A DNA stretch of 64,000 nucleotides from a virus. Location of the stretch: the IMG/VR virus record IMGVR_UViG_3300029267_002792. One strand, written 5' to 3'. Position numbers and translations under genes: made by a program. Below the pieces are notes generated by a model. The model did no database searches, was not told the origin of the DNA, and saw only the letters and a program-made list of their open reading frames with translations. Shown here piece after piece: positions 6,278 to 63,188 of the stretch. Positions within the stretch are counted from its first letter, which is position 1, and each line of letters opens with the position of its first letter.

Positions 6278-6618
6278 TATCCCCTCGCAGCCAGATACTC
6301 AGAGAAGGACCGAGCAAACTCTTCCGATCGAAGAAGATACCCTACGATTCGTTTCGCTACCACCTTCGGGAGATCGGGAAGGTCAGCGTAGTCAGCCGGC
6401 CGCAGCGATGCCTGTTCCAGCTCGTCGGCCAACACCCGAGCTGCGACAGCACCAACATCGCGATACAGACCGTCGAGAGGCATTCTCCGCACCACTTGGT
6501 CAGCCACATCCAACGACAGCTTCGAGGGGCGAGTGAGCACAGCTCCGGTGCCTCCGGGAGCCACGTTCATACTGGCACCGAAGATCTCGTCCAGCTGTTG
6601 TCTAAGTGCGCGGTTCAT
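6277..6618 (-). CDS. hypothetical protein
   Basis: 113-aa ORF coupled to portal start. Confidence 0.55.
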   Translation of the reverse strand: MNRALRQQLDEIFGASMNVAPGGTGAVLTRPSKLSLDVADQVVRRMPLDGLYRDVGAVAARVLADELEQASLRPADYADLPDLPKVVAKRIVGYLLRSEEFARSFSEYLAARG

Positions 6619-6657: not shown

Positions 6658-8676
6658 TCAGTCGCCCTGCCCGAATCCTGAGCCTATCAGAAATGGAGGC
6701 AAAACCGTAAGGTCTTCGCTTATATCCGCCACATCCTCGCTCCCGTAGCTCCGAGCTAGCGCGGCCTGCTGGTGCTCGCGCATCCACGCGTCCCCATGGT
6801 CTGGAACGCTCTTTAGCATCTCCAAAGGAATAGACGACGAGTTTTCCGTCAGTGTCCACACAACCCCGGCCACAGCGTCCGAGGTGTCCTTCCGCCCGCG
6901 CAGCGGGTGGTCAACCTTCCGTTTTACCCGGTCGTGTTCGAGTTCCCTCAGCTCCTGAAGCAGGGGCTCGTAGTCGTAGTAGTACAGCCGATCTTCATAG
7001 AGCGCCGACTTCAACAGGTCGTACGGCCCCATCGTTCGATCGATCGAGAGCTGGACAGCGTTGAACCCTCTCTGGTTCAATTTCTGAATAGCATCAGCAG
7101 AGTTCCACGAGTCGATCGACACGCACGTGATCATGTAACCGTGGCGACCGAGCTGGTACACAAGCTTCCGAATGTCCCCAAGAATGATCTCCCCGCCCAC
7201 CGGAGGGACAATCCGCAAAACCACGTCAATCGTGATCTCAGGGGCTCGCTCCGGATACTTGTTCCCCTCGTCGTCCCTGCGTACGACCTCTCTCCACCCC
7301 GAAACGTGCCCCATCGCAAAACCCGTCGCGTCTCCAGACAATGACGGGTCGATGTGGATGTGGCGTGGAGCGTACGGGCTCAGAATCGGGCGCATTCCCC
7401 CTTCCGCATCATTCGCGGGTCGGAGCATTTTGTGCCAGTAAAACGTACCTGGTTGGGAGGGATCGTAGACCTCCACACTGAACGGGTGCTTCATGTCCGA
7501 GCGAACCGCATCGATAATTTTCGTCCGGCGCTGGATGTACGGGCTCACAGACACCGTAGCCACGCCAGCCAAGTCGCGGATCGCCCCTTCCAGGTCGTTC
7601 TCGAAATCTCCCCGGAAGTCCTCAGGCACCTCAATGATGACGCAGTCCTCGGGAAGTGTGGCGCGAACCTCGTCGATGTCCTCATTGTCCTCAATGATCC
7701 GACTCGGTGCCTGCTCGTTACCCACAACGGTGTGGAACCACTCGCCGGAGTAGTAGATGTCCGGCTTGACGTCCCAGAGCGCGTAGTCCCGGACGAACAC
7801 CGTAGGGTCTAGCGTTGACTCCTTGATTCGCTTGGCCGTGAAATCGTCGTTGGTTTGTTTCGAGGAAACAACGAACAGGATGCCCGGCAGCCGGCCCTTG
7901 CGCTCGAACCTGGACTTCATCCGGCGCTGCATAGCGTTGTACAGCACCTCAGCCCGGTCTTGAAGGTTGAACCGTGGGTCCTGCCCCTTCGTCGCCTTCG
8001 GCATAAAGTTTGTCTCATCCAAAAGGCCACCGATCACGTTGAGACCGAGCACAGACCCGTCATTACTCGCTCGTGCCGCCACCCACACCTTCTTCGGGAA
8101 CCGGAGTTCCTTCTTGGTCTTCTCGAACGGAAAGTGTTCCTGAAAGTACGGGCTAGCCTCGATCTTCGTGGCAATGTTTTCGTAGGCGACCTTGGTGGCC
8201 AAAATTTCGTTGACCGAGAGGCACACAATCGAGATGTTCGAGTTCGCCGCGATACCGAACGACCGGTGAGGGTCGCGCATGCAAGAGAGGATGTAAAGAA
8301 GACGGCAAATACCAATGGACGCGGCGAAGGTTTTCCCCCACCCGATGGCTCCCGTGAGCACCGCCTCCCGGTACCCCTCGTCAAACAGCGTGGCCAAGTC
8401 ATCCAGCAAGATCGAATACAGGTTGTCGCACGTGTTCCCCAGGTAGTAGGGGTCCATGCAGAACGTTTTCATGTCCACGGGCGTGCGAACCCACTCGAGA
8501 TTTCCGATCGTTTGGAGAAGAGCGGCGTCGCTCTTCGGGTCCTTCAGCTCCGCCAGGATGAGTTCGATCGTCTTCCGCTCGTCCGGTGTAAGGGTCTCCA
8601 GGTCCTTTTCCAGGAGCCCAGTCTTCTCCAGAGGCGTACGGATAGATCGCCAGTGGCCTTCCTGATACTCGATCAT
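6658..8676 (-). CDS. terL: terminase large subunit
   Basis: Walker A GAIGWGKT, Walker B LLDETNF, nuclease HIDPSLSGDATG and KDTSDAVAG; next to portal. Confidence 0.9.
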   Translation of the reverse strand: MIEYQEGHWRSIRTPLEKTGLLEKDLETLTPDERKTIELILAELKDPKSDAALLQTIGNLEWVRTPVDMKTFCMDPYYLGNTCDNLYSILLDDLATLFDEGYREAVLTGAIGWGKTFAASIGICRLLYILSCMRDPHRSFGIAANSNISIVCLSVNEILATKVAYENIATKIEASPYFQEHFPFEKTKKELRFPKKVWVAARASNDGSVLGLNVIGGLLDETNFMPKATKGQDPRFNLQDRAEVLYNAMQRRMKSRFERKGRLPGILFVVSSKQTNDDFTAKRIKESTLDPTVFVRDYALWDVKPDIYYSGEWFHTVVGNEQAPSRIIEDNEDIDEVRATLPEDCVIIEVPEDFRGDFENDLEGAIRDLAGVATVSVSPYIQRRTKIIDAVRSDMKHPFSVEVYDPSQPGTFYWHKMLRPANDAEGGMRPILSPYAPRHIHIDPSLSGDATGFAMGHVSGWREVVRRDDEGNKYPERAPEITIDVVLRIVPPVGGEIILGDIRKLVYQLGRHGYMITCVSIDSWNSADAIQKLNQRGFNAVQLSIDRTMGPYDLLKSALYEDRLYYYDYEPLLQELRELEHDRVKRKVDHPLRGRKDTSDAVAGVVWTLTENSSSIPLEMLKSVPDHGDAWMREHQQAALARSYGSEDVADISEDLTVLPPFLIGSGFGQGD

Positions 8677-30837: not shown

Positions 30838-32213
30838 CAGAAAGGCACGTCTTTCGTGTCGTCACTGCCGCCAAACAGCAGGCCCGCACCATAGGGGTCC
30901 GGGTCAGGTCCCGAACCCGGAGCCGCTCCCGAGCCCGCACCCCCGCCCGACGATCCAACCGCACCTCCTGCACCAGAAGCCCCTAACGCCGCCATAGCCC
31001 CCTTCGGCAACTCATCGAAGTTCATGGTGTCGAAGTCCCAATGGGTCTCAACCTCTTCACCCAACCCTTCCCGGAACTTCAAAGGGAGCTGGACCATCCG
31101 CTTGTCGCGTACCATGTCATCAGTCCGCATCAAACCAAATATGAGGTCCGCATTCCAGCCAGCAGCATCCGACAGAGCGATCTTCTCAGGACCCGCCGAA
31201 GAAAGCTTGCTCCCCTTCACCTCGCGGTTGAACTGGGTGGAGGCGACCAGAGGTATATGGTTCCGCTTGGCCATCCGCTTCAGCTCATCGAACGAATTGG
31301 CCGCGCGCTCGGTCCTCCCATCACCAGGCACCTTGAGTAGGTACGCACCGTCGAGGAAAACGATGTCCGGCTCGGATTCCTCGATAGCCGCCTCCAGCGA
31401 CTCAACGCGAAAATCGAAGTCGCCTCCGATGATGTACAGACCCTCCGCCGATACCACCTCATCAATCCACTCCATCATCTTCTGCTTGACGAAGCTACCA
31501 AGCCGCGCACGCCGAAGCTCGTTGTAGGGGTACTTCTTGTGCACCGACACCCAGCGCTGGAGGATTTTCTGCCGGCCCATCTCAGTCGTGACGAACAGCA
31601 CCCGCCGCTTCTGAACCGCCCAGGCATGATCAGCGAGGATGATAAGAGTCCAGCTCTTCCCCACCCCGAGTCGCGCAACGTACAGCACAAAGTCTTCCGG
31701 CCAGAACCCGAGCGTAGCCTCATTCACCGTCGGCCACGGCGTAAGAATTCCCGTCTCACCTGCCTCCAGACGTTCGTAGTACGCCAAAAATTCCGGCAGT
31801 AGCGAAGGCAGGCTGACCGTCTTGGAAACTCCTATCCCGAGGCGCCTCAGCTCCCGAACGCTATCCTCGAACTGAGCGTAAGCAGCATGAGGCTGACTGG
31901 CGTTGTAGAGTGCATCGATTCGTCCGAGCTGAGTCCCGACAGCATTGTGCAACCGATCGTTCAGGACCTCGTCGATCCACACCTCAGCAGGAACATTAGC
32001 TGGAGGCGACGGAAGCATAACCCCCGTCTTGCTCTCAACCATCGCGGCATCGGGGGTGGTCTGGTACTTACTCACGTAGTCGAGAACGAACACCCACGCC
32101 CTCAACCCCTTACCCTTCAGGCAGTCGCCATCGACCCCCTTCTCAGCCGCCCGGCGAACAGCCGGGAGTCCCTCAGCCAGCACACTGGCAACAAAGATCG
32201 TATTCAGATCCAC
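30837..32213 (-). CDS. dnaB: DnaB-like replicative helicase
   Basis: ARLGVGKS, FVTTEM, VFLDGAYL, STQFNR, LKFREG. Confidence 0.88.
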   Translation of the reverse strand: MDLNTIFVASVLAEGLPAVRRAAEKGVDGDCLKGKGLRAWVFVLDYVSKYQTTPDAAMVESKTGVMLPSPPANVPAEVWIDEVLNDRLHNAVGTQLGRIDALYNASQPHAAYAQFEDSVRELRRLGIGVSKTVSLPSLLPEFLAYYERLEAGETGILTPWPTVNEATLGFWPEDFVLYVARLGVGKSWTLIILADHAWAVQKRRVLFVTTEMGRQKILQRWVSVHKKYPYNELRRARLGSFVKQKMMEWIDEVVSAEGLYIIGGDFDFRVESLEAAIEESEPDIVFLDGAYLLKVPGDGRTERAANSFDELKRMAKRNHIPLVASTQFNREVKGSKLSSAGPEKIALSDAAGWNADLIFGLMRTDDMVRDKRMVQLPLKFREGLGEEVETHWDFDTMNFDELPKGAMAALGASGAGGAVGSSGGGAGSGAAPGSGPDPDPYGAGLLFGGSDDTKDVPF

Positions 32214-37095: not shown

Positions 37096-37365
37096 AGGTC
37101 CATCCTCGCGCGTGCGGGAGAACCGCCTGAAGCGGAGAAGATCGCCCTGGTCCATCCTCACGCCTCACGCGTGCGGGGAACCGGGCACTGTAGCAGACTC
37201 CGCTCTCACAGCACCGGTCCATCCTCACGCGTGCGGGAGAACCACACGCCCGTGCGGAACTTCGAGGAGCGCGACGGGTCCATCCCCACGCGTGTGGGGG
37301 AACCTCACCGCCGATGATGTACAGGCCCTCGGAGGACGGTCCATCCCCACGCGTGTGGGGGAACC
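37096..37365 (-). CRISPR. Cas-less type I-E-like array: 5 repeats, 4 spacers
   Basis: 29-nt palindromic repeat GGTTCCCCCACACGCGTGGGGATGGACCG; three 32-nt spacers and one 24-nt; decays toward the left. Confidence 0.92.
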
Positions 37366-37370
37366 CCTGT

Positions 37371-37481
37371 GCCACGCTGAGCCGAAAAAAAACGGTTCTC
37401 CTCCACACACATGAGTTCCTCGTTCGAGACGAGGCAAGAACACCGCGCTCTCACGCAGTGCCACCGACTGGAATATCGGCA
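37371..37481 (-). repeat. CRISPR leader copy 1, identical inverted copy at 53819-53929
   Basis: 111-bp identity checked base by base. Confidence 0.9.
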
Positions 37482-37498
37482 AGCGGTGGTATTGTCAA
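37470..37498 (-). promoter_or_regulatory. promoter for CRISPR array 1
   Basis: TTGACA-N17-TATTCC. Confidence 0.55.
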
Positions 37499-53713: not shown

Positions 53714-53801
53714 CACATAACCCGGAATTGTTAGCGGTGTCAATAGCAATCGTCCCCGGAGCTGAAAGGTGGTTGACAATGCCTCCGCTTGTTGGTAATC
53801 T
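53714..53801. promoter_or_regulatory. divergent promoter pair at the strand switch
   Basis: Leftward TTGACA-N17-TTATGT; rightward TTGACA(53773)-N17-TAATCT. Confidence 0.55.
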
Positions 53802-53818
53802 CCAGAGCGTGAATCAGA

Positions 53819-53929
53819 TGCCGATATTCCAGTCGGTGGCACTGCGTGAGAGCGCGGTGTTCTTGCCTCGTCTCGAACGAGGAACTCATGTGTGTGGAGG
53901 AGAACCGTTTTTTTTCGGCTCAGCGTGGC
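53819..53929 (+). repeat. CRISPR leader copy 2
   Basis: Exact reverse complement of 37371-37481. Confidence 0.9.
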
Positions 53930-54010
53930 GCACGCGCGGGGATGGACCGGAGTACACGATGGACCAGAGATTTGCAGAGCAGGTTCCCCCGCACGCGTGG
54001 GGATGGTCTT
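53930..54010 (+). CRISPR. single-spacer mini-array
   Basis: 5'-truncated repeat GCACGCGCGGGGATGGACCG, 32-nt spacer, repeat GGTTCCCCCGCACGCGTGGGGATGGTCTT. Confidence 0.82.
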
Positions 54011-63023: not shown

Positions 63024-63094
63024 GGGCGATTGGTGAAAGAGAATCATGGCTGCCTTACAAGCAGCAGTTGGGGGTGCGATTCCCTCATCGCCCA
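63024..63094 (+). tRNA. tRNA-Val(UAC)
   Basis: Loop CTTACAA. Confidence 0.85.
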
Positions 63095-63100
63095 CTACGC

Positions 63101-63188
63101 GCGAGGATGGCGAAATTGGCAAACGCACCAGATTTAGGTTCTGGCGAGCCCTAGAGGGCAAGTGCGGGTTCGACTCCCGCTCCTCGCA
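63101..63188 (+). tRNA. tRNA-Leu(UAG)
   Basis: Loop TTTAGGT, long variable arm. Confidence 0.9.

Follow-up and report, generated by a model that had tools for sequence, protein, structure and literature searches.

Type V-N CRISPR systems, whose effector is Cas12n, were formerly designated V-U4 or C2c9. Their tracrRNA overlaps an open reading frame and has five stems, with a repeat:anti-repeat stem, and a pseudoknot connects the loop of stem 1 to repeat nucleotides -4 to -2; the PAM is AAN or AAG, and PDB entry 9J09 represents RdCas12n, a type V-N effector (PMC12216341). Cas12r of the Thermus Lalka phages is accompanied by 29-bp I-E-like repeats with spacers of 31-33 nt (10.64898/2026.04.20.719267). 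It is an open question whether type V arrays came from duplication of omega-RNA segments or from insertion of tnpB beside existing arrays (PMC10691335). In the phage described here, the leader of each CRISPR array is, on balance of the comparisons made below, probably a Cas12n-type tracrRNA that is fused in cis to the array and serves as the scaffold for a TnpB/Cas12n-like nuclease of the same phage.

The window (the whole stretch of 64,000 nucleotides that was analysed) is phage DNA, in which almost all genes lie on the same strand and a DnaB-like helicase and a primase are encoded. Exact-protein look-ups matched it to a JGI metagenome contig of 193,864 bp (3300029258, Ga0309772_1000058), and the remainder of the ~194-kb phage was read by stepwise look-ups of the same kind along that contig. 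The contig ends within repeat 1 of array 1 (window ~37343) and an ENA contig begins at array 2; assembly breaks fall at the arrays, and the phage genome is probably circularly permuted. The assemblies differ at array 2 (window 53770-54010 versus L022:7531-7873), where the JGI contig carries three spacers between four repeats, and a 30-nt stretch with a good -10 box (TAATCT) that is found in the window copy of array 2 is missing from the JGI copy and from array 1. No DNA match to the region was found in the phage collection searched, and exact-pattern scans of IMG/VR and JGI metagenomes with the leader junction, the repeat and the motif of the first leader hairpin (H1) returned nothing or chance 18-19-mers with unrelated flanks.

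The phage has eight arrays with seven distinct leaders, six of the arrays having been found by walking the JGI contig beyond the pair in the window. The array repeat, GGTTCCCCCACACGCGTGGGGATGGACCG, has the characters of a type I-E repeat, namely a length of 29 nt, a Cas6e-type hairpin, an 8-nt 5' handle and spacers of ~32 nt. As for the cas operon (cas3, Cascade, cas1-cas2) and the host-type leader that are expected for type I-E, no cas family is among the Pfam matches listed for the called genes of loci L022-L031, and the leader of the phage arrays bears no relation to those of the host lineage. The repeat is identical at 26 of 28 positions to that of long cas2-adjacent arrays in metagenome-assembled genomes of Vicinamibacteria/Vicinamibacterales, which makes this lineage the likely host. 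Spacer 1 of array 1 (37305-37336, minus strand) matches the phage's own DnaB-like helicase gene (31420-31451, minus strand) at 26 of 32 positions and in frame, with SSEGLYIIGG in translation versus SAEGLYIIGG in the helicase; its target is probably the helicase of a related phage, the phage's own copy escaping by the mismatches. No protospacer was found in the DNA of the loci examined, and the exact scan of IMG/VR for spacer 1 was empty. In array D, the same spacer occupies two successive positions (L031:6273-6303 and 6334-6364). A degenerate solitary repeat-like sequence, CCCACTACGCGCGAGGATGGCG, lies just upstream of a tRNA cluster (window 63092-63113, plus strand); outside the arrays, the antisense of this sequence ranks with the best partners for the repeat.

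Upstream of all eight arrays is a structured leader of ~110 nt that consists of three hairpins (H1-H3), a two-part anti-repeat and the leader-repeat junction (Table 1). The hairpins, anti-repeat and run of eight T residues that a first-pass annotation had reported for array 1 are all in place on the minus strand. A covariance model (R1) built from the seven distinct leaders of the phage recovers every leader copy of the phage at 80-116 bits. In an R1-fitted alignment of 12 distinct sequences, which is biased towards the structure of the model, 96% of the cells of H1-H3 are paired versus 80% in shuffles, and 13 of 23 pairs are changed on both sides; sliding the partners by one to three columns leaves 35-47% of cells paired. 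The H1 helix is 100% paired with three of its five pairs changed on both sides, and its loop, UUCCA, is invariant across all copies; H2 varies in sequence among copies with its pairing maintained (five of seven pairs changed on both sides). The paralogous leaders within the phage are not independent of one another, and independent support comes from the four other contigs described below. RNAalifold, run on a plain MAFFT alignment, recovered all three hairpins and additionally predicted pairing between repeat nt 10-20 and the 5' half of the anti-repeat. The leader by itself is not an unusually stable fold (z = -0.77), and that idea was rejected. Rfam assigned no family to the leader and recognized only a tmRNA close by, the full-length gene for which (RF00023, 134.6 bits) is located immediately 3' of array E (L031:8722-9136).

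Table 1. Positions of the leader elements and of the arrays in the window.
Feature	Position	Strand	Description
-35 box	37493..37498	-	TTGACA; conserved in the leader cassette
Hairpin H1	37464..37479	-	CCGAU-AUUCCA-GUCGG; absent from the first-pass annotation, overlapping the -10 box presumed there
Hairpin H2	37440..37461	-	GCACUGCGU/GCGCGGUGU; 9 bp, GAGA loop
Hairpin H3	37418..37434	-	CCUCGU-CUCGA-ACGAGG, then conserved AACUC
Anti-repeat, two-part	37394..37415	-	pairs with repeat nt 1-20
T8 tract	37385..37392	-	loop between anti-repeat and repeat 1; variable
Leader-repeat junction	37366..37384	-	conserved; CGGCUCAGCGUGGCACAGG
Array 1	37097..37365	-	five type I-E-like repeats, 61-bp period, degenerating with distance from the leader
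Array 1, repeat 1	37365-37337	-	
Array 2 leader	53821..53934	+	identical to the array 1 leader from H1 through CAGCGUGGC
Array 2 in the window	53935..54010	+	truncated repeat, one spacer, one repeat

The usual -10 box (TAGTTT, TAATCT or TAGGTT, 17 nt downstream of the -35 box in the paralogues) is deleted in the array 1 copy of the leader, where the sole box at the correct spacing is TATTCC (37475-37470, within H1), and a consensus scan found no promoter at the array 1 leader. Because of the deletion, transcription of H1 in array 1 may depend solely on transcripts that run on from the gene upstream.

Repeat nt 8-20 are the partner of the 5' half of the anti-repeat, CUCAUGUGUGUGG, and repeat nt 1-7 that of the 3' half, GG-A-GAACC. 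The duplex predicted by RNAduplex between the anti-repeat and nt 1-20 of repeat 1 has 20 bp, three of them G.U, with two 1-nt bulges and an energy of -34.6 kcal/mol; thus repeat 1 itself is a better partner than the repeat variant with which the pairing was originally proposed. None of 300 dinucleotide shuffles was as good (z = -6.7), and the mean energy of background duplexes, over 25,588 windows of 30 nt on both strands of the 64 kb, was -15.8 (sd 4.2), with better scores than that of the anti-repeat found only in the arrays themselves, in one repeat relic at ~63.1 kb and in one GC-rich window. The earlier caution that palindromy of the repeat could inflate the match is not borne out, because the partner of the 3' half (GGAGAACC) is the start of the repeat (GGUUC), a stretch that is not palindromic.

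Directly after H3-AAC, the two-part anti-repeat is found in the same register in all 12 units compared, where it makes 14-21 bp with repeat nt 1-20. Position 3 of the repeat forms a U-A pair in most units and a C-G pair in two of the other contigs (L096 and L073); position 5 forms C-G, except for U-A in array A, L097 and L073; position 17 forms U-A in array 1, array A and L073 and C-G elsewhere, and is broken in arrays B and E; and positions 10, 14, 16 and 19 alternate between G.U and Watson-Crick pairs. When the scaffold was co-folded with the repeat and 20 nt, the minimum free energy structure had the repeat paired with the anti-repeat in eight of the 12 units and the repeat folded into its own hairpin in the other four; two competing folds are therefore plausible. 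Racr, the RNA anti-CRISPR, is a mimic of the repeat in the sense strand that sequesters Cas6/Cas7. A solitary repeat unit of this kind was considered and rejected for the present segment, which is antisense to the repeat and is contained in a conserved scaffold upstream of real arrays.

The TnpB/Cas12-like gene that was to be sought elsewhere in the genome is present in the same phage ~70 kb from array 1 (L031:6629-8050, 473 aa), with a leader copy that extends over its 3' end. This copy, that of array E (L031:7995-8102), starts 56 nt before the nuclease stop codon (8048-8050), an overlap like that of tracrRNA and open reading frame in type V-N, and array E, with nine repeats, begins 53 nt past the stop codon. 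The RuvC triad residues D226, E317 and D413 and the zinc-finger residues C384, C387, C403 and C406 are invariant in eight members of the nuclease clade, which range in size from 445 to 497 aa. The best solved relative is RdCas12n (PDB 9J09), with an E-value of 2e-23 over residues 128-424 and a common insert, SAKGT..PG.NV.QK.GLNR. Among NCBIfam models, only the generic guided_TnpB model was passed, the score for c2c8 being 151 bits versus a cut-off of 350; the homology to type V-N is a distant similarity that reaches no curated Cas12n or c2c8 threshold. The stretch of copy E that contains H1 (L031:7992-8015) encodes the C-terminal tail motif of the nuclease, TAIPRGKG, and since the IP.GK motif of the tail is also kept in four relatives, P0023, P0024 and P0026 among them, the same stretch is both an RNA stem-loop and a protein tail. 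A partial ninth copy of the scaffold, with its own promoter, lies in the 5' untranslated region of tnpB (L031:6517-6583; R1 E = 0.004) and consists of H1, an H3-like hairpin, an anti-repeat-like stretch and a T-rich stretch; in place of an array, the tnpB ribosome-binding site and start codon come next, and the copy may be regulatory or a relic.

In a search of 5.8 billion proteins, the nearest relatives of the nuclease were 45-56% identical to it. Loci of such relatives were examined on four independent metagenome contigs (L094, L096, L097 and L073), and the scaffold, the anti-repeat and I-E-like repeats are present on all four. In L094 (56% identity) and L096 (53%), an R1-positive scaffold overlaps the end of the open reading frame and leads into an I-E-like array, and in L096 and L097 (45%) a cassette of promoter, scaffold and array flanks the gene on both sides, as arrays D and E do in the phage; the array is downstream of the effector in L094, L096 and L097, as array E is, and R1 recognizes these three scaffolds with E-values of 1e-8 to 1e-12. 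R1 was negative for L073 (56% identity across the C-terminal part), in which inspection by eye showed the same hairpins, then a two-part anti-repeat and a single I-E-like repeat with unique sequence beyond it. A single repeat cannot yield a Cascade crRNA, and matches the needs of a nuclease that uses a scaffold plus a guide. An 865-aa protein near the L096 cassette and an 863-aa protein beside array 1 were compared, and homology between them was rejected.

No scaffold was found at 23 viral loci with TnpBs of 34% identity or less, nor by an R1 search of the host-lineage array loci L001, L005, L016 and L018; no clean anti-repeat duplex was found in the leaders of the I-E-like arrays of L002-L019; and R1 found nothing credible in five candidate host-lineage genomes and 151 genomes of the same class, the single match among them (E 2.7e-4) being judged to be due to chance, as it falls in a coding region with no array. 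The prospect raised in the first-pass annotation that ordinary host I-E leaders might carry the same segment thus did not materialize in the Vicinamibacteria I-E leaders examined. Because the 3' end of the nuclease gene overlaps a leader copy and because relatives at 45-56% identity carry the scaffold and I-E-like repeats, the favoured one of the four alternatives offered for the anti-repeat at the outset is a guide scaffold for an effector encoded elsewhere in the genome; a small RNA ending at the U8 and a DNA motif are not favoured.

As a guide scaffold, the leader would be transcribed together with its array, from eight paralogous copies of ~110 nt. H1, H2 and H3 would form the body of the scaffold and correspond to stems 1-3 of Cas12n, and the anti-repeat:repeat duplex to stems 4-5. 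The anti-repeat would pair in cis with nt 1-20 of repeat 1, the T8 tract and the junction forming the loop between them, and may pair in trans with later repeats. The repeat:anti-repeat stem would replace the Cas6e-type hairpin of the repeat, so that the guide end would consist of the 3' handle, AUGGACCG, and the spacer, and the RNA would be loaded onto the TnpB/Cas12n-like nuclease encoded ~70 kb away. UCCA in the invariant H1 loop (window 37469-37474) and UGGA in the repeat 3' handle (37338-37344), also invariant, are complementary, and a pseudoknot between loop and handle is possible; for covariation of these positions L073 is the only informative case and a weak one, in which CC:GG is kept and both flanks are changed.

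Under the same scaffold model, the repeats would remain I-E-like so that the host's type I-E Cas1-Cas2 could insert spacers. The I-E form of the repeats, a spacer length of 32 nt and the absence of adaptation genes together suggest that the spacers were written by host I-E Cas1-Cas2. Since the complete Cas6e hairpin and the 8-nt handle are kept, host Cascade may also use the arrays, perhaps alongside the nuclease mechanism. A further proposal, tentative and on present evidence rather doubtful, is that the arrays have a dual use: host Cas1-Cas2 would write them, Cascade could read them, and the anti-repeat would shift the fold of each transcript from the Cas6e hairpin to a natural single-guide RNA for the phage nuclease that comprises the scaffold, repeat 1 and spacer 1. 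If dual use were true, the phage would divert the immune memory of its host to its own effector, and the cassette would be a living intermediate in which TnpB captured an existing class 1 array, not an array grown from omega-RNA.

An alternative that appears unlikely is that the leader is a cis-regulatory element for the host's type I-E system: Cascade would use the arrays, the anti-repeat would act as an RNA switch, masking the Cas6e hairpin in repeat 1 and so timing or limiting crRNA maturation or stabilizing the 5' end, and the linkage to TnpB would be hitch-hiking. The repeats at 26/28 identity to those of Vicinamibacterales I-E arrays, the intact hairpin and handle, the 61-bp period and the two competing folds that are predicted all fit with this alternative, and Cas-less phage mini-arrays that borrow host effectors have been documented (PMC11656645). 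It leaves unexplained, however, the overlap of the scaffold with the open reading frame, their co-travel through 45-56% protein divergence and the single-repeat unit of L073, and no such element is present in the host I-E leaders examined. A switch of this kind could coexist with the function of the leader as a scaffold.

Release of the scaffold as a stand-alone small RNA is decidedly improbable. The T8 tract would act as a partial terminator that frees a tracrRNA of ~90 nt (~75 nt from the start assumed in the first-pass annotation), and read-through transcripts would be the pre-crRNA. Consistent with this, the tract is directly 3' of the anti-repeat in four of the seven distinct leaders of the phage, and trans pairing with later repeats would require free copies of the scaffold. 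On the other hand, no stable hairpin abuts the tract and a terminator scan of the leader strand found no terminator-like site; arrays B, C and E, as well as L094 and L096, lack both the tract and the anti-repeat's AACC, and a run of T5-T6 is situated between the anti-repeat halves in L097, with the tract absent or displaced in eight of the 12 units. An intrinsic terminator at T8 was rejected because there is no abutting GC-rich hairpin and the tract is not conserved among copies, and the U8 loses on the same grounds its proposed role as the defined 3' end of a ~75-nt RNA. T8 is a variable loop element and not a conserved terminator.

It is highly improbable that the segment is a DNA-level adaptation motif, in which an inverted partial repeat and an A/T tract would help Cas1-Cas2 to find or bend the leader-repeat junction, even though T residues are abundant immediately before repeat 1 in host leaders (ATTTTCG in L016 and L018) and the ...AGG of the junction before the repeat is conserved. 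On the opposite strand, each of the two to seven G.U pairs of a unit would become an A.C mismatch; pairing of this kind is possible only on the transcribed strand, which favours RNA over a DNA cruciform or an inverted repeat bound by protein; the covariation of H1-H3 likewise indicates RNA, and the three arrays of the phage from which the T-tract and AACC are deleted, B, C and E, hold 3, 5 and 8 spacers, respectively. An inert relic, which would be an old inverted copy of part of the repeat inherited without function by all leader duplicates, is barely credible: the copies are paralogues of common ancestry and three of them are without the 3' part, but the register and the two-part layout are maintained on four independent contigs, compensating changes occur on both sides, and substitutions are biased to those that preserve pairing.

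With the leader read as a guide scaffold, an odd sequence upstream of CRISPR arrays becomes a testable guide-RNA gene, and eight seemingly orphan arrays are linked to a compact nuclease. If this is true, the phage carries a mesophilic branch of the TnpB-to-Cas12 transition (V-N, Cas12r-like) in which the tracrRNA is fused in cis and the repeats come from class 1, and the cassette bears on the question of type V array origin raised in PMC10691335. It would also provide a miniature nuclease, whose PAM may be A-rich, with a short natural scaffold (~110 nt plus the 29-nt repeat).

Of the known systems, type V-N is like the present one in having a monomeric nuclease of TnpB size, a scaffold that overlaps the 3' end of the open reading frame with the array downstream, and multiple stems that include a repeat:anti-repeat stem; the pseudoknot of the stem 1 loop in the RdCas12n sgRNA has a candidate counterpart here, and the A-rich PAM of AcCas12n, AAG, is compatible with spacers chosen by type I-E. 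It differs in that the scaffold is 170 nt in Cas12n versus ~110 nt here, and in that here each of eight arrays dispersed through a jumbo phage has the scaffold fused to it as its 'leader', with a separate -35 box at seven of them. Cas12r likewise is a phage-encoded TnpB-like effector followed by an array that shares elements with host I-E repeats, with no adaptation genes, and is aimed at rival mobile elements, acquisition through host I-E Cas1-Cas2 having been proposed (10.64898/2026.04.20.719267). Unlike the present nuclease, Cas12r (564 aa) belongs to a thermophile branch of TnpB with a single array beside its gene, and it is tracrRNA-free, its crRNA consisting of 26 nt of repeat and 18 nt of spacer; that the nearest phage analogue needs no tracrRNA counts against the scaffold reading. 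Cas12r was not in the best 30 of 453 phage records in a tblastn search.

The omega-RNA of TnpB (IS200/IS605 OMEGA systems such as ISDra2) also begins within the 3' end of tnpB and stops beside the guide, and the L073 unit of scaffold, one repeat and unique sequence is arranged like an omega-RNA; here, by contrast, neither tnpA nor transposon ends were observed, the guides are in expandable CRISPR arrays, and the last stem is a type I-E repeat. The Cas-less mini-arrays of viruses (PMC11656645) are similar in that the repeats are nearly those of the presumed host, no cas Pfam matches are listed (L022-L031 here) and one spacer resembles a gene of a related phage, but they are without a structured anti-repeat leader and without a linked nuclease. 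Type V-N and Cas12r are thus already published, and what is unusual in this jumbo phage of Acidobacteria is a scaffold fused in cis to eight scattered arrays, together with clear covariation between anti-repeat and repeat.
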